A DNA stretch of 37,103 nucleotides from a virus, in UHGV virus genome UHGV-0194471. One strand, 5' to 3'. The position numbers and the translations under genes were made by a program. Shown here piece by piece: positions 716 to 35,621 of the stretch. Below the pieces are notes generated by a model. It ran no database searches and was not told the DNA's origin. It saw only the letters and a program-made list of their open reading frames with translations. Each line of letters starts with the position of its first letter. Positions within the stretch are counted from its first letter, which is position 1.

Positions 716-1096
716 TCACTTCCGGGGTGATTTTACTGCTTCAGGTTCATCAATGATAGAGAATAATGGGAGCTGTCGGCGGGCGCTTTCAGAACGCTGG
801 ATCTTTTTCACCACTTTGTAGATCCACTGCAAAGTCAGGTTGTACTTCTTCGCCAGTTCGCGGTAGTTGCGTCCATCACACTCCTGCCAGATTTTATAGT
901 CCCGCGCCGATGTCATGAAGACCATGCCTTTGGGCAGGTAAATGGTTTGTCCGCCCCATGCCTGCATCATGTGATTAGCCACAGCGACGGCAATCTGTTC
1001 AGCGATATCATCTTCCATTCCAACCATTTCTTTCAATGTGTTTGCGACGTGGTGCGCAAGGTCAGCAAAGATTTCTGGCTGTTGCGGTTCTTTCAT
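716..1096 (-). CDS. Mor/C-family transcriptional activator (middle/late gene activator)
   Basis: C-terminal HTH pattern ...YLPKG...DYKIWQECDGRNYRELAKKYNLTLQWIYKVVKK typical of Mu Mor/C; start moved to the internal ATG preceded by GGGAGGGG, which overlaps the upstream stop as ATGA. Confidence 0.7.
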   Translation of the reverse strand: MKEPQQPEIFADLAHHVANTLKEMVGMEDDIAEQIAVAVANHMMQAWGGQTIYLPKGMVFMTSARDYKIWQECDGRNYRELAKKYNLTLQWIYKVVKKIQRSESARRQLPLFSIIDEPEAVKSPRK

Positions 1097-1497
1097 CTTC
1101 CCCTCCCGACACGTGCCAGCCATTTTTTCAGTTGTTCAATCACCTGGCTGGCCTGCTGATTGTTAAGCCACTCCAGCCGGGCGACGCCTGTCTGGCGTTG
1201 TACGAACTTATTTAACGCCGACAAACTGCCATCTCTGACCGTACCGCTGGAAGTCAGTTCCTGCCATAACGCGCGGATCATCGCAGACTGCTTATCATAG
1301 GAAGGAGGCTCTTTAGATGTGACTTTGAAGCCCTGTTTTTTCATCACAGCGAAAGCCTTAGCCAGTTGTGAGTCGCTCATTACCCGTAACGATTCACTGC
1401 CGCAGTGTGTTTTAAGTAATTGTCGATACGTAGCCTCATCCAGTCGCAGCTCTCGCCGGGCAACATGGATAACCCGCAATAATTGTGCTCTGTTCAT
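1093..1497 (-). CDS. GemA-like protein (Mu gp16 family)
   Basis: 134 aa, MNRAQLLRVIHVARRELRLDEATYRQLL... resembles Mu GemA; sits directly upstream of the mor-like gene as in Mu. Confidence 0.6.
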   Translation of the reverse strand: MNRAQLLRVIHVARRELRLDEATYRQLLKTHCGSESLRVMSDSQLAKAFAVMKKQGFKVTSKEPPSYDKQSAMIRALWQELTSSGTVRDGSLSALNKFVQRQTGVARLEWLNNQQASQVIEQLKKWLARVGRGR

Positions 1498-9079: not shown

Positions 9080-9156
9080 ACATGTTGTAAACAAAACAAA
9101 AAAGCGTGCAGACAGCACGCATTTACTATCTAACTCTACTGAAGGTTTCAGATTCT

Positions 9157-10188
9157 ATGCCAGCAAATGAACCTGCAAATGCAATCGTTGTAAATCATGT
9201 GGTTATTCACCTTTTAGATAAAGAGCCGCATGGGGTGACATCCTTACAGCTTAGCCCAGCAGAGAGTGGCGTCACCGCAGCATCACAACGCTTAATAGAT
9301 GATATCTGTGGGAAATATGCAGGGCGAATGGGGAAAGGTTATGGCCATTTTGAAGATGACCCTGACAATTACCCGATGCAAACAATCGTATCAGACTATT
9401 TAGCTCAAGAGCATCCTGATGATTTTTACCGTAGCTCCTGCCGCATGATTCGTCATCTGGAATCTCGGATTCAAACAACACCACTCGCTACTGGTGGCTA
9501 TGTTCTATTCGCCCACATTACGATGAATCAACACGAGCATATTTTAGTTGCCATGTTAAGCCCCACGACGGGAACTGCGGTTAACGATGCCTTTGCTATC
9601 CAGGAAAGTGTCTACCTTGATATCGACAAGCTACGTGTGGCGGGGCGTATTGACATTACGTCCTGGCAATCAGGTGCCGAACGTTATATAAGTTTCCTGA
9701 AAGGGAGCAATGCTGTATCTGGTTACTTTAAGCAGTTCCTGGGCTGTAACGATGTTTTGATCGCCAAGCGTGAAACAGAGAAATTGCGGGATGCGTTGAA
9801 AGAGTTTGCGACTGAGCAAGGGCTTGACCCCGCACGTCGAGAGGCTTTTCTGCAAACGGCCCATGACCATTTGAAGCAACTGAGCAAAGATGGTGAGCCT
9901 GTAGATCTGACAACCTTTGTGAACGCAGTCTGGCCACAAGAACCAGAACTGCTATCGACTAAGCTGGCCAACCAAGAACTGGAACTGTCGGATGGTTTTG
10001 TCCCAGATGGACGCGTACTAAAAGGAATCATTTCCTTTAAAGGAAAGTCCAATCATTGGGAGCTAAAGTTTGATCGTGCTGGTCTTCAAGATGGTTCAAT
10101 TGAGTATAATCGTGATCAGGATGTAATCATTCTAAGGAATATTCCTGATAGCTTCAGAGAAGAGATACTGGATGAGGTTGAGGAGTGA
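9157..10188 (+). CDS. YejK/NdpA-like (NA37 family) nucleoid-associated protein homolog
   Basis: ~343 aa; central segments (GGYVLFAH…ILVAMLS…YLDIDKLRVAGRIDITSWQ…ERYISFLKG…FLGC) resemble the E. coli YejK family as recalled from memory; start placed at ATG 9157 (GAAGG upstream) rather than the track start 9106. Confidence 0.5.
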   Translation: MPANEPANAIVVNHVVIHLLDKEPHGVTSLQLSPAESGVTAASQRLIDDICGKYAGRMGKGYGHFEDDPDNYPMQTIVSDYLAQEHPDDFYRSSCRMIRHLESRIQTTPLATGGYVLFAHITMNQHEHILVAMLSPTTGTAVNDAFAIQESVYLDIDKLRVAGRIDITSWQSGAERYISFLKGSNAVSGYFKQFLGCNDVLIAKRETEKLRDALKEFATEQGLDPARREAFLQTAHDHLKQLSKDGEPVDLTTFVNAVWPQEPELLSTKLANQELELSDGFVPDGRVLKGIISFKGKSNHWELKFDRAGLQDGSIEYNRDQDVIILRNIPDSFREEILDEVEE

Positions 10189-11393
10189 GTATCAGTTTTG
10201 AGCAACTGGTGGGATTGTACAGGCAGATTACTTTCGGTAACGATATGGCCGAAGGTACGCTGGTGCTTACCCCAGAATCCTGCGAGTTGCTCAACGCTTT
10301 GCTTGAGGACACCGATACATATGGGATCTCTCTGGCACAAGGTGAAGTAGTGGCTGGCCAGCAGGTGTCGCTTTTTGTGAACGCCCCAAAGACAAAGCTA
10401 GGTCTGCTATGCCGTAATTTGGCGGCTTTGTTAAAGTCGCCAAAACACCAAAGCGAGGAACCTTCCCGCTACTACCTGATCGACAGCCAATTTTATAGTT
10501 CGGATGCGCCAACATCTGTAATTGAAAACTACCGCACTATCTTAACATTTCTGCGCCTGCTTAAAGAAAAGTCGGCATACTTTGATACCAGTGCATATGA
10601 ATGCGTTTTTTTCCGCGCCGATGTATTTAAATTACCTATACGTTACAGTGCAGAAACCGTAGAAAATCTTGATAAAACGACACTCGATGAACTCATTCAG
10701 CAGTTTTCTGACGACACACACAAAGAGCAGAAACTCTCGCTTTTAATTGAAAGCATCCAGTTAATCGGTCAGGAAACGGAAAACAATAAAGTCTTTGAGT
10801 ATGCACTGAAGAACATTGATAAATTAAAAGTTGAGTTCGATAAGGGTTATCGCCTCTTCACTTCTGGGTTCTCATACGAAAAGGTTCTGGATGAACTTAG
10901 AACCGCCAAAGTTGAAGAAATGGGACGTATCCATAAAGTCTTTTCAGATATCCAAAACCAGATACTGGGTATCCCAGTCGCAACCATTATCGTCGCGACA
11001 CAAATCAAGAAAGCAAGTGGTGATGTCTATCAAACCATTATCAATAGCGCAGTTTTTTTAGGGGCCTTTGTTTTTGCTACGTTGGTTATGTTGACTTTGT
11101 TCAACCAGTTACAGACGTTAACTGCTATCAAAGAAGAACTTCGACATAAAAAGACTCAGGTTGATAAAAAGTATGCATCAATAAAAAATGACATTGATAG
11201 TATCTTTTGCTCTGTACGTAAACGTCTTTGCCGTCAGGTTATCGCGTTCTGGTTTATTATTATGTTCCTTGTTGTCGCTATTATATCGACAGGATTAATT
11301 TACCTATACTGCACATACCCTGAAACATGGAATATCTTGGTTACAAAAGTGATGTCATGGCGGCATCACTTGAGTAATAAGCCCACTCCTTAA
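10185..11393 (+). CDS. Membrane-anchored protein of unknown function (large cytoplasmic N-domain, C-terminal TM helices)
   Basis: GTG start overlaps the upstream stop (GTGA); predicted TM segments AVFLGAFVFATLVMLTLF and VIAFWFIIMFLVVAIISTGLIYLY; markedly AT-rich. Confidence 0.55.
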   Translation: MSISFEQLVGLYRQITFGNDMAEGTLVLTPESCELLNALLEDTDTYGISLAQGEVVAGQQVSLFVNAPKTKLGLLCRNLAALLKSPKHQSEEPSRYYLIDSQFYSSDAPTSVIENYRTILTFLRLLKEKSAYFDTSAYECVFFRADVFKLPIRYSAETVENLDKTTLDELIQQFSDDTHKEQKLSLLIESIQLIGQETENNKVFEYALKNIDKLKVEFDKGYRLFTSGFSYEKVLDELRTAKVEEMGRIHKVFSDIQNQILGIPVATIIVATQIKKASGDVYQTIINSAVFLGAFVFATLVMLTLFNQLQTLTAIKEELRHKKTQVDKKYASIKNDIDSIFCSVRKRLCRQVIAFWFIIMFLVVAIISTGLIYLYCTYPETWNILVTKVMSWRHHLSNKPTP

Positions 11394-11432
11394 ACCCCTT
11401 TAAAAGCCTTCCTGCCTACCATTCCGCACACT

Positions 11433-11454
11433 GCCTCCATCACCCAATGGAGGC
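11433..11454 (+). promoter_or_regulatory. Hairpin enclosing the Shine-Dalgarno of the holin-like gene
   Basis: GCCTCCAT-cacccA-ATGGAGGC, 8-bp stem; the GGAGG at 11449..11453 is in the 3' arm, 5 nt before ATG 11459. Confidence 0.4.
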
Positions 11455-11458
11455 ACTT

Positions 11459-11749
11459 ATGAAAACTTCTCTTTTCCCGCGTTTATCCGGCTGGCTGGTG
11501 GCATCGGTGGTGTTGTTCGCGCTGATTGCGCTGATTTCCCCGCAGCAGCTTCCGGTCGTTGTTTACAAACTGAGCCTGATCTCGCTGGCGGCGGTGCTGG
11601 GCTACTGGCTGGATCGCAGCCTGTTTCCCTATGCGCGGCCAAATTATTTTCAGTCAGCGGAAAATGAACAACGTCTCTTTGCCGCCGCCATGCTGCGCCG
11701 TGCGGTGATTGTCGCGGCGGTGTGTCTGGCCGTGGCGATGGGGCTGTAG
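11459..11749 (+). CDS. Putative holin / small membrane protein (3 predicted TM helices)
   Basis: 96 aa, hydrophobic segments, immediately upstream of the endolysin; GGAGG RBS. Confidence 0.45.
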   Translation: MKTSLFPRLSGWLVASVVLFALIALISPQQLPVVVYKLSLISLAAVLGYWLDRSLFPYARPNYFQSAENEQRLFAAAMLRRAVIVAAVCLAVAMGL

Positions 11750-18659: not shown

Positions 18660-18837
18660 GCCATTTCTCCGCGCCGGGCGGATGCCCGGCTTCACCGCCC
18701 AACCTGCTTTATAAAGATTTATAAAGCCCTTTACGCCCCGATTTTTACCTTCTCTTTCCCCGCAGTGATTAAAGCGCTTTAAAAGCGATTTTCGCCCGTT
18801 TTTATAAAGCTATTCCCTGACGTACTACGGAGGGAAT
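18660..18837 (+). promoter_or_regulatory. Repeat-rich intergenic region upstream of the protease/scaffold gene; candidate late promoter
   Basis: Hairpin GCCGGGC-ggat-GCCCGGC (18673..18690); three copies of TTTATAAAG (18708, 18718, 18801); palindrome AAAGCGCTTT; GGAGGG RBS before ATG 18838. Confidence 0.4.
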
Positions 18838-19929
18838 ATGCCCGCACCTATTCATATCTTTAAATCCGGCACGCATACCGCGATGAACGGTACGCGGATG
18901 CCGTTCACATCGGCGGAGCTGGCTGCCTGTGCCGCCGCCTACGATCCGGCGGTGCATGAAGCGCCGCTGGTTATCGGCCATCCGGCGCATGACGCTCCGG
19001 CCTACGGCTGGGTGAAGTCGTTAACCGCCTCGCAGGATGATTTGCAAGCCGAGCCTGACCAGGTTGATCCGGCCTTTGCCGAACTGGTCGGAGCCGGACG
19101 TTACAAGAAAATCTCCGCCTCGTTCTATCTGCCTGACTCCCCTAATAACCCAAAGCCCGGCGCGTTGTATCTGCGCCACGTGGGTTTTCTCGGTGCGCAG
19201 CCGCCTGCCGTAAAAGGCTTAAAGCCCGTCGAGTTCAGCGAGCAGGAGGAAGGCGTGGTCGAGTTCGCCGACTGGGGACTTTCAACCAGCGCAGGGATGT
19301 TTGCCCGCCTGCGCGATTTCCTGATCAGCAAGTTCAGCCTCGACGAGGCCGACAGCGTTTTGCCGGCCTGGCAAATCGATGCGTTACGCGATGAGGCGCA
19401 GCGTGATGACCCTAAACCCGATCCGGCTTTCAGTGAGCCAAAACCTGAACCAAAGGAGAAATCCGTGACTGAAGAAGAAATTAAGGCGATGCGCGAAGAG
19501 AATGCCCGCCTGAAAGCCGACGCTGCTGACCGCGCGAAGGCTGATGTAAAACGCCGTGCCGACGAACTGCACACTGCTAACGTCTCCTTTGCCGAGGAAC
19601 TGGTGACCGGCGGCAAGCTGACGCCTGCGGCTAAAGGCGTGGTTGTCGCGCTGCTGGATGAAGTAAGCAAAGGCGATGCGCCGGTGGAGTTCGCCGAGGG
19701 CGATGTGAAGAAACCACTGGCGATGGCCTTTAAAGAACTATTGACAGGCGCTGCGCCGGTGCTGGATTTCAGCGAAGTTGCCAGCAAAGACCGCGCCAAC
19801 CGCGACGTCGTGCGCACCGTCGATTTTGCCGACGCCGACCCGGAGCAACTGGCGGTGCATAACAAGGCCGTGGCGCTAGCGAAGGCTGAAGGCATCAGTT
19901 ACGAAGCTGCCGTTAAACGCTGCTTATAA
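18838..19929 (+). CDS. Head protease / scaffold protein (Mu I-like)
   Basis: 363 aa upstream of the major capsid gene; Mu-I-like N-terminal region and charged helical C-terminus. Confidence 0.6.
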   Translation: MPAPIHIFKSGTHTAMNGTRMPFTSAELAACAAAYDPAVHEAPLVIGHPAHDAPAYGWVKSLTASQDDLQAEPDQVDPAFAELVGAGRYKKISASFYLPDSPNNPKPGALYLRHVGFLGAQPPAVKGLKPVEFSEQEEGVVEFADWGLSTSAGMFARLRDFLISKFSLDEADSVLPAWQIDALRDEAQRDDPKPDPAFSEPKPEPKEKSVTEEEIKAMREENARLKADAADRAKADVKRRADELHTANVSFAEELVTGGKLTPAAKGVVVALLDEVSKGDAPVEFAEGDVKKPLAMAFKELLTGAAPVLDFSEVASKDRANRDVVRTVDFADADPEQLAVHNKAVALAKAEGISYEAAVKRCL

Positions 19930-22351: not shown

Positions 22352-23756
22352 TTATTTACACGGCGTCGAGACTATCGAGATCGAACGCGGCCCGCGCCCG
22401 GTGCGTACCGTTAAGTCGGCGGTGATTGGTCTTGTAGGAACGGCTCCGGCTGGCCCGATTAACACATCGGTATTGTGCCTGTCAGAGAAAGACGCGGCGC
22501 AGTTCGGCTCGCAGGTTTCCGGGTTCAGTATCCCGCAGGCACTGGATGCGATTTATGACCACGGCGCGGGAACGGTGGTGGTAATTAACGTGGCCGATCC
22601 GGCAAAGCACAGCGTAACGGCCTCTACCATCGCACGTCGGGTTGATGATAATCATCAGATCAGGCTGGACTATGGCGCGGTCAGTAATGTCGTTTTGAAG
22701 GTGTCGGGCGCGAGTTCAGATTTAAGCCCGGCAAATTATACCGTTGATGCCGGAACTGGCGTTGTTACATGCCCGACGGTTAACGCAGGCGACACGCTGT
22801 TTGCCACATATCGTTATATCGATCCGACAAAAATCACCGCTGCCGATATCATCGGCGCGATCAATGCCGCAGGCCAGCGTATCGGGATGAAGCTGCTGGA
22901 GGATACCTATAGTCTCTATGGTTTTAAACCGAAAATCCTGATCGCCCCGGTGTTCTGTACGCAAAAATCGGTCAGTACCGAGCTGATTGCCCTGGCGGAA
23001 AAGCTGGACGCTATCACCTATATCGATGCGCCAGTTGGCACGACCTTCAGCCAGGTGCTGGCAGGCCGTGGCGCATCCGGGACTATCAACTTCAATACCA
23101 GTTCCGAACGCGCCCGTCTGTGCTACCCGCACGTTAAGGTGTATGACTCTGTCACCGACAGCGAACGGCTGGAGCCGCTTTCCTCCCGCGCCGCTGGCCT
23201 GCGTGCCAAAGTGGATCTGGATAACGGTTTCTGGTGGAGCAACTCCAACCAGGAGATCCTCGGCATCACTGGTGTGGAACGTTCGCTGTCGGCGATGATT
23301 GATGACCCGCAAAGCGAGGTGAATCAACTGAACGAAAACGGCATCACCACCGTTTTCAACAGCTACGGCACCGGGATGCGACTGTGGGGCAACCGTACCG
23401 CCGCCTGGCCGACCGTTACCCATATGCGCAACTTTGAAAATGTGCGGCGCACCGGGGATGTGATTAACGAGTCGATCCGTTACTTCAGTCAGCAGTATCT
23501 GGATATGCCGATTAACCAGGCGCTGATTGACGCGCTAACCGAATCGGTGAATGCCTATGGCCGCAAGCTGATTGGCGACGGCGCATTGCTGGGCTTCGAG
23601 TGCTGGTATGACCCGGCGCGTAATGAGCAGACCGAGCTGGCCGCTGGCCATCTGCTGCTCAGTTACAAATATACGCCGCCTCCGCCGCTGGAACGGCTGA
23701 CGTTTGAGACGGAAATCACTTCGGAATATCTGGTTAATCTGGAAGGTAAACGCTGA
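22341..23756 (+). CDS. Tail sheath protein (Mu L-like)
   Basis: 471 aa, directly followed by the tube gene. Confidence 0.7.
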   Translation: MAANYLHGVETIEIERGPRPVRTVKSAVIGLVGTAPAGPINTSVLCLSEKDAAQFGSQVSGFSIPQALDAIYDHGAGTVVVINVADPAKHSVTASTIARRVDDNHQIRLDYGAVSNVVLKVSGASSDLSPANYTVDAGTGVVTCPTVNAGDTLFATYRYIDPTKITAADIIGAINAAGQRIGMKLLEDTYSLYGFKPKILIAPVFCTQKSVSTELIALAEKLDAITYIDAPVGTTFSQVLAGRGASGTINFNTSSERARLCYPHVKVYDSVTDSERLEPLSSRAAGLRAKVDLDNGFWWSNSNQEILGITGVERSLSAMIDDPQSEVNQLNENGITTVFNSYGTGMRLWGNRTAAWPTVTHMRNFENVRRTGDVINESIRYFSQQYLDMPINQALIDALTESVNAYGRKLIGDGALLGFECWYDPARNEQTELAAGHLLLSYKYTPPPPLERLTFETEITSEYLVNLEGKR

Positions 23757-24280
23757 TGGGCGGAAAAATTGAAGTTAACCGTATTACCAACGCCAATATC
23801 TATATCAATGGTAATAACCTGCTGGGCCGCGCGGAGGAGATTAAGCTGCCGGATATCAGCATGATTATGCAGGAGCATAAGGCGCTGGGGATGGTCGGCA
23901 AGATTGAGTTGCCCGCTGGGTTCGACAAACTGGAGGGCGAAATCAAGTGGAACAGCTTCTATCGCGAAGTGATGCGCCATGCGGCTAACCCGTATAAGTC
24001 GCTGGCGTTGCAGTGCCGTTCGTCTATCGACCGCTATAACTCAACGGGGCGTATCGATGAAATCCCGCTGGTGACGCACCTGACGGTAATGTTCAAGAAG
24101 AATCCGCTGGGGACGTTTAAGCAACATGAGAACCCGGATTTTTCCAGTGCCTTTAGCTGCACCTATATCAAGCAGGTGGTGGACGGCGAGACGCTGCTGG
24201 AACTGGATTATCTGGCGAATATCTTCAAAGTGAATGGCGTGGATCAGTTGAGCACCTATCGCGCCAATATCGGCGGTTAA
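23756..24280 (+). CDS. Tail tube protein (Mu M-like)
   Basis: 174 aa immediately after the sheath gene. Confidence 0.65.
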   Translation: MGGKIEVNRITNANIYINGNNLLGRAEEIKLPDISMIMQEHKALGMVGKIELPAGFDKLEGEIKWNSFYREVMRHAANPYKSLALQCRSSIDRYNSTGRIDEIPLVTHLTVMFKKNPLGTFKQHENPDFSSAFSCTYIKQVVDGETLLELDYLANIFKVNGVDQLSTYRANIGG

Positions 24281-24328
24281 CCACTCATTAAAGCTGTTTA
24301 ATACTGTTTGTTTCATCCCTCCTCAATA

Positions 24329-24355
24329 CTGTCCTCAGTTCAACACTGAGGACAG
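24329..24355 (+). promoter_or_regulatory. Perfect 10-bp stem hairpin enclosing the Shine-Dalgarno of the tail chaperone gene
   Basis: CTGTCCTCAG-ttcaaca-CTGAGGACAG; the GAGGA in the 3' arm lies 8 nt before ATG 24361; direct repeat AATACTGT upstream. Confidence 0.45.
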
Positions 24356-24360
24356 TCACC

Positions 24361-24663
24361 ATGACAGACACATTCAAACTGCAATACCCCTTCACCGCAC
24401 CCTCCGGGCAGCGTATCGACGAACTGCAACTGACTCGCCTGAAGGTCAAAGATATGCGTGCGGCTCGACGTATCAGCGATAAACCTGAAGACTGGGACGA
24501 ACCGCTACTGGCGGCGATGACCGGACTGGTGCCGGAAGATTTGGCCGAAATGGATCTTGCTGACTATCAGGCGTTGCAGAAACGATTTCAGAACATGCTT
24601 GGGCTGGGCGGCGAACCCGCAGCAACTGTGGCAGGCGATGGCGCTGCTGGCACGGTGGTTTAG
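24361..24663 (+). CDS. Tail assembly chaperone (between tube and tape measure)
   Basis: 100 aa in the conserved chaperone position; an open +1 frame extends to 24763. Confidence 0.55.
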   Translation: MTDTFKLQYPFTAPSGQRIDELQLTRLKVKDMRAARRISDKPEDWDEPLLAAMTGLVPEDLAEMDLADYQALQKRFQNMLGLGGEPAATVAGDGAAGTVV

Positions 24664-24737
24664 GTTTCAACCAGGGGAAATTGACAATCTGGCGGTCGGG
24701 GATTTTGAACGCTGGCTTGATGAGGCCAGCGCCCAGA

Positions 24738-25016
24738 TTAAGCGTGAGAACGGCGGCGGTTGAGTACCCATTCGGTGATGCTGCCGACAAGGGCGAACAG
24801 GAAGGCCAGCAGGGAAATGGCCGGGCTAAATAACCAGCCTGCCAGTGCGGTCAGCAACAGTACACCAACGCTGCCCACACCAATCATCAAAGTTGCCGCC
24901 AGCCCATCATGGCAGTTATGCAGGGTATAGCTGACCACATGAAACAGCGCCCAACCATCCACCGCCACAATCGCGGCGATCAATAGTCCTTTAAACAGGG
25001 TTAATGCGTTGTTCAT
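24738..25016 (-). CDS. Minus-strand small membrane protein (3 predicted TM helices) inside the tail operon
   Basis: 92 aa; AAGAGG RBS 5 nt before the ATG; fills a gap between chaperone and tape-measure genes that no plus-strand gene covers. Confidence 0.5.
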   Translation of the reverse strand: MNNALTLFKGLLIAAIVAVDGWALFHVVSYTLHNCHDGLAATLMIGVGSVGVLLLTALAGWLFSPAISLLAFLFALVGSITEWVLNRRRSHA

Positions 25017-25056
25017 AACGCCTCTTTTTTATTGTGGTTTTCCGGGAGTGTAAAGC

Positions 25057-30054: not shown

Positions 30055-30542
30055 AAGGCGTCACCCGACAGACCGGGATTATCAGCGATATCGACGAGGT
30101 GAAGGTGTGCGTGCGCGTCACCCTGCCGGAATGCGACGATCTGCGCACCAACTGGCTCCCCATCCTGCAACGCAATACGCAGGACAATAAGGACTACTGG
30201 CTGCCGGATATCGGCGAGCAGGTGGAGGTGCTGCTGGATGATAACGGCGAGGATGGCGTGGTGCTGGGGGCGGTCTATTCGTCGGTGGATACGCCACCGG
30301 TGACGGACAAAGACAAGCGCTATGTGCGGTTCTCCGATAAGGCCGCGATTGAGTACGACCGCAAACAGCACCAGTTGACCATTAATGGCGGCATTGAAAA
30401 AATCGTGATTGAGGTGAAAACCAGCGTCAGCATCACCGCGCCGCAGGTGGTCATCACGGGTAATGTCCGCGTCACCGGCAATATCAGTGCGTCAGGCTCT
30501 ATCATCGACGCTGGCGGCAATACCAACCATCACTCTCATTAA
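30051..30542 (+). CDS. Baseplate spike / assembly protein V-like (Mu gp45-like)
   Basis: 163 aa, position within the baseplate cluster. Confidence 0.55.
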   Translation: MKGVTRQTGIISDIDEVKVCVRVTLPECDDLRTNWLPILQRNTQDNKDYWLPDIGEQVEVLLDDNGEDGVVLGAVYSSVDTPPVTDKDKRYVRFSDKAAIEYDRKQHQLTINGGIEKIVIEVKTSVSITAPQVVITGNVRVTGNISASGSIIDAGGNTNHHSH

Positions 30543-30588
30543 AGCGGTTTAATACCGCCACTTTAGCAACGGGGGCGACAATGCCCCC

Positions 30589-30948
30589 ATGAGCACACAA
30601 TCCCATCCTTTAAATCTGCACTGGCAACCGGCCCTGAAACGCGACGGCGAGTACGTCTGTGGGCTGGAGGATATCAGCCAGGCCGTTCACATCATTCTGC
30701 GCACGCCGCGCGGTAGCGATCCCCATCGCCCCTTTTTCGGTAGCGACCTGTGGCGCTATATCGACTGGCCTGCTGAACGGGCGATTCCCCATGTGGTGCG
30801 TGAGTCGGTGGAGGCTATCCGCCACTGGGAGCCGCGCTGCAAATTTCTCAAAGTGGTGCCGGAACTGGACGGCGAACATCTCACGCTGCGCATCCAGTGG
30901 CGCGCCGCCGATGGCGTTATTAATGAAACGGAGGTGGTATGGCGTTAG
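30589..30948 (+). CDS. Baseplate protein, GPW/gp25 family
   Basis: 119 aa with …ILRTPRGSDPHRPFFGSDLWRYID…, typical of gp25/GPW. Confidence 0.6.
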   Translation: MSTQSHPLNLHWQPALKRDGEYVCGLEDISQAVHIILRTPRGSDPHRPFFGSDLWRYIDWPAERAIPHVVRESVEAIRHWEPRCKFLKVVPELDGEHLTLRIQWRAADGVINETEVVWR

Positions 30949-35072: not shown

Positions 35073-35521
35073 AGCCGGTGTATCTGGCGTTCTATAAAGG
35101 GCGAGCCGATCATCATGGGTTCGCACGTCTTTCCGACTGGCTGACGCGGCTGGTGACGCGGGGTGAGTATTCTCACTGCGAGCTGGCTGTTGACCAGGGT
35201 AACGGCGAGTTTCTTTGTTATTCGTCGTCGGTGCGTGACAAGGGGGTGCGCTGTAAGCAAATGCCGCTGCCACTCGATAAATGGGATCTTATCGCGCTAA
35301 ATGCGCTACCAACCAGTGTGGAGCAGTTCTTCCGTCGAAACGACGCCATGAAATATGACTGGCTGGGGGCTGTGGGATTCGTTGTTTTTAATCGTGGACG
35401 GGAGAACAAATATTTCTGTAGCGAGTTTTGCGCAGATTTTCTTGGACTGGTCGATAGCTGGCGTTATTCACCCAATATGCTCCACGCGCTGGCCAGCAGT
35501 ATTCAGACTATGAAGTTATAA
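35069..35521 (+). CDS. Cys/His-rich protein of unknown function
   Basis: 150 aa with six Cys (YSHCE, FLCYSS, VRCKQ, FCSEFC); ATG 35069 preceded by GGGGTGG and overlapping the upstream stop. Confidence 0.5.
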   Translation: MKPVYLAFYKGRADHHGFARLSDWLTRLVTRGEYSHCELAVDQGNGEFLCYSSSVRDKGVRCKQMPLPLDKWDLIALNALPTSVEQFFRRNDAMKYDWLGAVGFVVFNRGRENKYFCSEFCADFLGLVDSWRYSPNMLHALASSIQTMKL

Positions 35522-35534
35522 GGGAAACAGCGAC

Positions 35535-35621
35535 CAGAGTCAGGCGGTCACCTGACTCTGACCAGCTAACCCGCAGGAAGTGTCTGCGAGCCGCCCAGGG
35601 CTGCCACTGATGGCCATCAGT
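35535..35621 (+). promoter_or_regulatory. Two palindromic elements upstream of the dam gene
   Basis: Hairpin CAGAGTCAGG-cggtca-CCTGACTCTG (35535..35560) and a perfect 16-bp palindrome ACTGATGGCCATCAGT (35606..35621), ~47 bp before the dam ATG. Confidence 0.4.

Follow-up and report, generated by a model that had tools for sequence, protein, structure and literature searches.

The window analyzed here, i.e., the whole 37,103-nucleotide (nt) stretch of the virus genome UHGV-0194471, is a BcepMu-like (Bcepmuvirus-type) transposable phage in which a perfect hairpin covers the Shine-Dalgarno (SD) sequence of the tail assembly chaperone gene. The 5' arm of this hairpin, which is complementary to the SD region (anti-SD arm), overlaps the -10 hexamer and the start of a predicted late promoter dependent on an activator of the Mor family. 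The hairpin is probably a fold-back mask of the chaperone SD, the action of which would be restricted to the transcripts entering from the upstream sheath/tube operon.

The hairpin and the conservation of its pairing

The hairpin is composed of the following elements:

24328-24339, plus strand: 5' arm (anti-SD arm, ACTGTCCTCAGT), spanning approximately -10 to +2 of the predicted promoter
24340-24344, plus strand: loop TCAAC, 5 nt
24345-24356, plus strand: 3' arm ACTGAGGACAGT, containing the SD sequence GAGGA at 24348-24352
24305-24370, plus strand: optional outer helix in read-through RNA, where UGUUUGUU (24305-24312) pairs with GACAGACA (24363-24370)

An earlier description made from the letters of the window (the sequence-only reading) had reported a perfect 10-base pair (bp) inverted repeat before the chaperone gene, containing the GAGGA used by this gene. 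The inverted repeat is present at this position and is indeed perfect, but the stem extends 1 bp further at each end and amounts to 12 bp (24328-24339 / 24345-24356), with a predicted RNA energy of -19.6 kcal/mol (z = -5.35; none of 200 shuffled sequences was equally stable). As had been claimed, the stem contains GAGGA, which lies inside the 3' arm, 8 nt ahead of the chaperone ATG (24361). In the read-through context, the SD region is paired with a probability of 1.00, and among the 46 gene starts of the window, that of the chaperone gene shows the highest predicted pairing of the -14 to -6 region (1.00). The optional outer helix surrounds both the hairpin and the chaperone start codon, and was found by inspection to be retained just in part in the closest relative. 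No family of Rfam 15 matched the chaperone hairpin or any other part of the window at the gathering score, and a permissive search of the hairpin region returned no family: the sole match was a chance-level microRNA on the minus strand (19.3 bits, vs a gathering score of 80). The hairpin does not have the features of an intrinsic terminator, since CACCAUGACAG comes directly after the stem, a U tract is absent, and the hairpin is not called as a terminator in the scan.

The comparison with relatives was based on approximately 150 loci encoding chaperone homologues, taken from annotated phages, Escherichia coli genomes, one genome per GTDB species, and IMG/VR. These loci gave 97 to 101 distinct upstream regions including that of the window, depending on the flank compared, and several of the statistics given below rest on mutually related sequences. 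The clade of the window type includes E. coli A35, Lelliottia, and two IMG/VR contigs, and comprises four distinct sequences; a 14-mer scan of viral contigs for further loci of this type gave mostly chance matches and one known variant. In this clade, 10 stem pairs are invariant, no variant breaks the stem, and the top two pairs show compensatory changes (G-C to U-A and U-A to C-G, giving CAGT/ACTG, CATC/GATG, and CATT/AATG).

In a number of more distant clades, the SD is covered by stems differing in their sequence: TGCTCTG..CAGGAGCA in E. coli/Klebsiella, GCTCC..GGAGC in Pectobacterium, TGATACT..AGTATCA in Xenorhabdus/Photorhabdus, CCTCAA..TTGAGG in the IMG/VR contig L100, GTTCCTG..33 nt..CAGGAGC in Brenneria, GTGCTC..GAGCAC in Burkholderia, and GATGCTC-AAGG..CCTTGGAGCATC in Pseudomonas. 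Pandoraea also has a different stem, with the SD still covered, and the Pasteurellaceae carry a 14-bp stem (AAACTCCTTTGTGA..TCACAAAGGAGTTT) in which four of the 11 consensus pairs show changes on both sides. The loss of pairing in orthologous regions, which had been named beforehand as the observation that would speak against the hairpin, is thus not what was found. The clear exception is the Salmonella STM4212-type clade, in which the intergenic region measures 50 nt, the tube gene is followed by a GGGGCNNCGGCCCC hairpin, and AAGGA is left free; a metagenome scan with the chaperone protein returned four loci, all of the Salmonella type without the hairpin.

The alignment of 35 enterobacterial upstream regions with MAFFT and RNAalifold yielded no consensus structure, because the pairing register slides between clades. 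Since an alignment consensus was unusable, a cross-pairing permutation test was applied to 23 non-redundant representatives. The -10-proximal segment paired with its own SD region at a mean energy of -11.2 kcal/mol, vs -6.75 kcal/mol with non-cognate SD regions, and none of 20,000 permutations was as good as the cognate pairing. These comparisons show that the base pairing of the SD region is under selection. They also bear on the idea of a chance complementarity devoid of function: any region just before a start codon has an SD, and a pyrimidine-rich discriminator may complement it by accident. Both the permutation test and the compensatory changes in close relatives argue against this explanation, as does the rarity of such perfect hairpins (12 bp or more, loop of 3-10 nt), which occurred anywhere in just six of 300 dinucleotide-preserving shuffles of the 37-kb window, and we regard it as extremely improbable.

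Another explanation is that the hairpin might be a 3'-end element of the sheath/tube mRNA, i.e., a terminator, a pause site, or a barrier to 3'-exonucleases, its overlap with the SD being incidental to a compact intergenic region. Some of the relatives speak in its favor: in the Pasteurellaceae, the SD hairpin is followed by T6-T7, and in Neisseria (L048, L050, L071, and L074), a 12-bp stem with a T-run stands directly after the hexamer, about 60 to 20 nt ahead of the chaperone start, the SD further downstream being free. In many relatives, moreover, the tube gene is followed by a GC-rich terminator-like hairpin distinct from that of the SD. However, these relatives with an upstream terminator still retain the SD hairpin, the 3' arm tracks the SD and often the AUG across clades rather than the end of the upstream gene, and the stem of the window leads into CACCATGACAG, which has no U tract, and is not called in the terminator scan. 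A role limited to the 3' end is therefore improbable. The 5' arm of the Neisseria terminator overlaps the -10 hexamer CAGAAT, and this hairpin is a full intrinsic terminator, taking the place of the SD mask; it would be a transcription-level version of the same insulation against read-through. In all these variants, as judged from their sequences, the hairpin can form only in RNA arriving from upstream.

Coupling of the hairpin arm to a predicted Mor-type promoter

The elements of the predicted promoter are as follows:

24287-24302, plus strand: predicted Mor/C-type activator box ATTAAAGCTGTTTAAT, with its core TTAA-N6-TTAA at 24288-24301
24325-24330, plus strand: predicted -10 hexamer AATACT, 23 nt past the box, without any -35 element
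24337-24338, plus strand: predicted transcription start, 7-8 nt after the hexamer, placed on the basis of the sigma-70 geometry and of a Mor/C box centre at about -43
11390, 18769, 24288, 24991, and 30539: TTAA-N6-TTAA copies preceding the holin gene, the head gene starting at 18838, the chaperone gene, the tape measure gene, and gpW, respectively

In phage Mu, the Mor/C sites consist of 5-bp inverted repeats with a 6-bp GC-rich spacer centred at -43.5, which replace the -35 element and are associated with a normal -10 hexamer (PMC4390567, PMC2582627). The window contains the corresponding components, namely a gene of the Mor family, a 16-bp dyad (the box ATTAAAGCTGTTTAAT, consisting of two 5-bp inverted repeats and a 6-bp spacer), and a -10 hexamer without a -35 element. 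Measured from its centre at 24294.5, the box lies 42.5-43.5 nt before the predicted start, a distance which depends on that prediction. TTAA-N6-TTAA occurs five times in the window (vs 0.28 expected), each time just upstream of the start of a late gene, and four of the five copies are intergenic. The E. coli phage PhiKM has three copies where 0.10 would be expected, one each ahead of the chaperone, gpW, and holin genes. In the window, the activator-box regions of the chaperone gene (24284-24308) and gpW (30535-30559) are the two nearly identical copies of a 25-nt direct repeat, CTCATTAAAGCNGTTTAATACNG.

The distance between the box and the hexamer was analyzed with a box-anchored scan of offsets 14-32. 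The scan was applied to 15 representatives of clades extending from Moraxella and Neisseria to Pseudomonas and the Enterobacterales. NANNNT was found exactly 23 nt after the box in all 15 representatives, with a mean of 4.13 matches to the six positions of TATAAT, whereas at any other offset it occurred in at most three of the 15, and the sequence between the box and the hexamer is not conserved. The hexamers at +23 include TATAAT in Moraxella and CATAAT, TAAACT, GATGCT, and NATACT in other clades. Among the 35 enterobacterial upstream regions, the stem has at its 5' edge an invariant ATACTG, the pairing partner of which varies with the clade: since this hexanucleotide is kept despite its differing partners, it must be subject to a constraint other than pairing. 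A second TTAA-N6-TTAA is present in the loop at L052, L062, and L064, and owing to this copy the automatic box assignment fails at these three loci. The placement of the Pasteurellaceae hexamer in the hairpin loop was considered and rejected, as the box-anchored analysis puts TAAACT at the 5' arm. From these data we infer that the tube-chaperone intergenic region holds a Mor-dependent late promoter with a predicted start site.

The 5' arm (24328-24339) comprises the final three bases of the -10 hexamer together with the discriminator and the first positions predicted to be transcribed (+1 to +2/+3). Since it overlaps the hexamer and the predicted start, an RNA initiated at this promoter would be devoid of the arm and its SD would be free. 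The predicted own transcript (24337-24375) has a folding energy of -4.8 kcal/mol (z = +0.29), and the read-through context (24290-24375) one of -24.5 kcal/mol (z = -4.37). A polymerase starting at about 24337 would give a 24-nt leader without the anti-SD arm, in which GAGGA would be accessible, while the RNA reading through from the tube gene would contain both arms, and the -19.6 kcal/mol stem would block the binding of the 30S subunit. The output of the chaperone gene would thus be tied to its own Mor-dependent promoter and not to the abundant tube message. In this model, Mor binding, the start site, the existence of read-through, and the effect on translation are all deduced from the sequence.

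Arm and hexamer stay linked in every clade, those whose leaders are long included. A search for the best partner of the SD region placed it at positions -17 to +5 of the predicted start in Brenneria, Pandoraea, Pseudomonas, Pasteurellaceae, Necropsobacter, Haemophilus, and a Kingella metagenome-assembled genome, the scan being informative for the long-leader clades only, as short leaders clip the true arm. In Brenneria, Pseudomonas, and Pandoraea, the arm remains joined to the hexamer even though the SD is located 30-40 nt further downstream. The Salmonella STM4212-type loci, in which the SD is free, are without a box, and overall a paired SD was found in 64 of the 71 loci with a box vs seven of the 30 without one (Fisher p = 7e-11 for 101 distinct sequences, which are not phylogenetically independent, so that this value indicates a trend only).

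These findings bear on the possibility that the hairpin might be a constitutive attenuator. Both arms would then be present in every chaperone mRNA, and the rate of initiation would be lowered so that the chaperone is made far below the level of the tube protein from the same message, which implies either that there is no functional internal promoter or that transcription starts upstream of the arm. A strong hairpin occluding the SD, the conservation of the pairing, and the plausible co-transcription of the tube and chaperone genes, between which there is no terminator, are all compatible with this explanation. The ratios of the late proteins of phage lambda are reportedly set by translation initiation. 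However, a perfect -19.6 kcal/mol stem on the SD would shut initiation down almost completely instead of adjusting its level, and the box, the 23-nt gap, and the hexamer are conserved in 15 of 15 clades. Moreover, the loci without a box are mostly without SD pairing, and the arm stays with the hexamer where the SD has moved away from it: this linkage is required by a mask specific to read-through, and there is no reason for it in a plain attenuator. We therefore consider the constitutive attenuator rather unlikely.

The sequence-only reading had also proposed that two late genes, those encoding the chaperone and the holin, share a translational control mechanism. The shared arrangement is borne out and also includes the head gene at 18838, but a plain hairpin present on every mRNA does not seem to be the mechanism involved. 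Promoter-dependent unmasking, whereby read-through RNA would be silent and own-promoter RNA translatable, is more likely, because in both the chaperone and holin genes the 5' arm corresponds to the -10 hexamer, the discriminator, and the predicted start.

Several points weigh against a read-through mask linked to a Mor-type promoter. As regards the promoter, AATACT matches TATAAT at just four of the six positions, and the standard sigma-70 scan, which needs a -35 element, found nothing in the tube-chaperone intergenic region, although this is to be expected of a promoter without a -35 element. The Burkholderia loci carry the hairpin with merely a degenerate box; conversely, in Neisseria, Moraxella, and Kingella kingae, the promoter motif is present but the SD is unpaired, and in BcepMu, the SD of the holin gene lies outside the hairpin. 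As regards the unmasking, the arm reaches about +2/+3, and a start located 2-3 nt further upstream would leave a short residual helix; in addition, the predicted own transcript has a weak 4-bp helix in which the SD remains approximately 50% engaged. The need to block the translation of the chaperone from a read-through message which is itself late is not obvious, and the tape measure gene and the other downstream genes are outside the cover of the chaperone hairpin. Lastly, the literature was searched without finding any start-site, Mor-binding, or translation measurements for the BcepMu-like phage family.

The same design at other late genes and in known systems

Two other late genes of the window carry the same succession of elements:

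11390-11461, plus strand: holin element, with the box at 11390-11403, the hexamer CACACT at 11427-11432 (+23), the hairpin at 11432-11440 / 11447-11455, and the ATG at 11459
18769-18841, plus strand: head-gene element, with the box at 18769-18782, the hexamer AAAGCT at 18806-18811 (+23), and the hairpin at 18809-18818 / 18831-18841

At the holin gene, for which a hairpin-SD arrangement had previously been claimed, a 9-bp stem does cover GGAGG (-14.8 kcal/mol, z = -4.49), and the design is kept in the holin loci of relatives, where the box is followed by 23 nt, [C/G/A]ATGCT, and GTCTCC...GGAGAC. In these loci, an outer helix often pairs the hexamer with the start codon, with energies of up to -20.8 kcal/mol, and alternative stems are present in other clades (CTCTGACTGT/ACAGTCAGAG and ACCACCTC/GAGGTGGT). 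Within 35 closely related holin leaders of the E. coli type, covariation was not significant (199-252 of 500 shuffles reached the observed value): the inner helix is nearly invariant in this group, and the variation consists of six U-G cells vs one mismatch. Between holin groups, the cognate arms paired at -14.0 kcal/mol vs -10.6 kcal/mol for the non-cognate ones, and none of 20,000 permutations was as good. A mask at this gene would prevent lethal translation from the read-through of upstream genes. The holin open reading frame (ORF) has two in-frame ATGs (window 11447-11461), at 11447 and 11459 (MEALMK...), the first of which lies within the 3' arm of the hairpin; by analogy with lambda S, they could be a dual-start holin/antiholin arrangement. 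The hairpin of the head gene (18838) covers both GGAGGG and the AUG (-13.9 kcal/mol, z = -2.7).

The baseplate gene gpW (gp25-like) has no usable SD in the window (30539-30591) or at the loci of relatives (L361 17223-17274, L362 30777-30825, L363-L442). It is preceded by a Mor-type box; a GGGGGC/GCCCCC hairpin holds the -10 hexamer in its loop, and the gpW ATG begins exactly 7 nt after this hexamer. Of 39 distinct relatives, 33 have the spacing hexamer-6 nt-ATG, and compensatory variants are seen in the stem. This fixed spacing supports the rule whereby transcription starts at hexamer +7, and the gpW mRNA is predicted from the sequence to be leaderless, starting at the A of the AUG.

The box located at 24991, upstream of the tape measure gene (GTG 25057), overlaps the 5' end of a minus-strand ORF (24738-25016). 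Its best hexamer, TATTGT, is at +25 and not at +23, and a weak terminator-like hairpin (25006-25021) followed by T6 is present inside the would-be promoter spacer. On the basis of these sequence features, the presence of a promoter before the tape measure gene is uncertain.

The presence of the hexamer in a hairpin loop at gpW and at the BcepMu holin gene, along with the perfect palindrome over the predicted -10 hexamer and start of the chaperone gene, might also be taken to mean that the relevant element is a DNA palindrome (-10 to +20) serving as an operator for a dimeric regulator or modulating promoter opening, in which case RNA folding would be irrelevant. This explanation is very improbable in view of the variation observed. 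The half-sites are wholly different between clades with similar proteomes, and yet they complement their own SD region; the loops vary in size between 4 and over 30 nt, which is at odds with a protein operator; and the variants are mostly C-to-U changes giving U-G wobble pairs (as in L064, L160, L212, L214, L217, and L223, and in the holin inner helix, with six such cells vs one true mismatch), which are tolerated in RNA but are mismatched in terms of DNA symmetry.

The fact that several late genes are organized in this way suggests a more general rule, which we put forward tentatively, its likelihood being slightly short of even. In BcepMu-like phages and Mu-like prophages of Beta- and Gammaproteobacteria, each Mor-dependent late promoter would build an anti-SD or terminator arm into its -10/discriminator region, so that the first gene of each late operon (holin, head, and tail chaperone) would be translated only from its own promoter, gpW being leaderless. 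If this is true, adjacent late operons are systematically insulated at the translational level, which would set the ratios between structural proteins. The analysis also provides a map of the late promoters that can be tested in Bcepmuvirus-type prophages, frequent residents of E. coli, Klebsiella, Pectobacterium, and Pasteurellaceae genomes, and an annotation rule (box, 23 nt, hexamer, and anti-SD arm) which helps to set gene starts and operon borders. The interest of this arrangement appears to lie mainly in its apparently systematic use at several late promoters across a broad group of Mu-like prophages.

The closest known mechanism, by analogy, would be that of the T4 genes e (lysozyme), soc, 49, and I-TevI. 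The early/middle transcripts of these genes fold and sequester the SD and/or the AUG, and the late promoters are located in the DNA encoding the 5' strand, so that the late transcripts are without this strand and are translated; the effect measured in the case of gene e is approximately 100-fold (PMC3014915, PMC2988022). Likewise, the predicted -10 hexamer and start in the window lie inside the 5' arm. Unlike the T4 promoters, which are of the gp55-dependent TATAAATA late type, that of the window has a -10 hexamer of the sigma-70 type and a Mor/C-type box; T4 silences early/middle read-through, whereas the message entering here comes from the late sheath/tube operon; and the T4 start sites have been measured, while that of the window is known from sequence prediction. 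If the present interpretation is correct, translation from the own promoter only, as in T4, would extend to the unrelated Mu-like transposable phages, which use sigma-70 and a Mor activator, and also to a morphogenetic gene whose dosage relative to the tube and tape measure proteins matters for tail assembly.

With the Mu promoters Pm, Plys, PI, PP, and Pmom, the window shares the Mor-family gene, the 16-bp dyad centred at about -43, and the -10 hexamer without a -35 element (PMC4390567, PMC2582627), and here too several such promoters are spread along the late region. The TTAA half-site was derived from the window, and the likeness is one of format and not the outcome of a base-by-base comparison. 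The two Mu studies (PMC4390567 and PMC2582627) describe no anti-SD arm within the -10/discriminator region. In the literature searched, we found no description of BcepMu-type late promoters or of SD hairpins before tail chaperone genes.

Insertion sequences (IS) provide another parallel. In the fold-back inhibition of IS10/IS50, a sequence upstream of the element's own start pairs with the transposase gene's ribosome-binding site, and the read-through RNA is not translated. In IS200, a terminator at the left end gives protection from transcription entering the element, and a second structure, an inverted repeat within the tnpA 5' untranslated region, is thought to sequester the SD (PMC4513863). 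As in these elements, read-through transcripts would be kept untranslated in the window, but the IS elements guard transposase genes and have no activator-dependent promoter, whereas phage morphogenesis genes are involved here. Local stem-loops are also known to control the start of translation of late or lysis genes, as in the case of the sdi stem-loop of lambda S and the com/mom hairpin of Mu. These hairpins are present in the functional mRNA, where lambda S involves a choice between two start codons and Mu mom a protein activator, Com. The hairpin of the window differs from them in that its arm would be removed by the choice of promoter.

Genome context

The minus strand of the window carries an early operon encoding the transposase, an AAA+ transposition ATPase, GemA, and the Mor-family activator, and the plus strand carries the lysis genes, the head genes, and P2-like tail genes. 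The genes directly relevant to the hairpin are:

716-1123, minus strand: Mor-family transcription activator gene (PF08765 Mor, E = 1.7e-39)
23756-24280, plus strand: tail tube gene, 174 amino acids (aa) (PF04985 Phage_tube, E = 2.5e-57)
24361-24663, plus strand: tail assembly chaperone gene, gpE/gp41 type, 100 aa (PF10109 Phage_TAC_7, E = 8.6e-21; phrog_166; E. coli A35 annotation)

The homologues of the Mor-family gene carry a C/Mor annotation in PhiKM and BcepMu, and its product is presumed to be the activator of the promoters containing the box. The intergenic region between the tube and chaperone genes measures 80 nt, and the terminator scan detected no terminator-like site from the tube stop codon to the hairpin. 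We infer from this arrangement that the tube gene is probably the source of the read-through transcription into the hairpin.

In some E. coli/Klebsiella relatives (L002, L003, L008, and L009; e.g., L002 2081-2362), one or two extra small genes, encoding a hypothetical protein and a Gp49-family protein, are located between the tube and chaperone genes; after them, shortly before the activator box, comes a terminator-like hairpin (GGGGCTTCGGCCCC). In the window, a GpE-type extension ORF (24557-24763, phrog_8286), which is in the +1 frame (equivalent to -2) relative to the chaperone ORF, overlaps the latter around GGTGGTTTAGG (24654-24664). A -2 frameshift has been reported for Mu, as cited in PMC2628397, and the frames of the window ORFs fit a Mu-type -2 frameshift rather than the usual -1. 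On the opposite strand, between the chaperone and tape measure genes, there is a hydrophobic 92-aa ORF (24738-25016), the start of which overlaps the hairpin at 25006-25021. It has no Pfam or PHROG match, is annotated as hypothetical in E. coli A35, and is possibly a moron.

Elsewhere in the window, a perfect 10-bp hairpin with a 6-nt loop (CAGAGTCAGG..CCTGACTCTG, 35535-35560) is located shortly after the gene ending at 35521 and may be the end of the late tail-fibre operon. Lastly, a gene encoding a 360-aa nucleoid-associated protein of the NA37 family (9106-10188, plus strand) lies between a repressor-like helix-turn-helix gene and the lysis cassette, and is a cargo unusual for this BcepMu-like type of phage.

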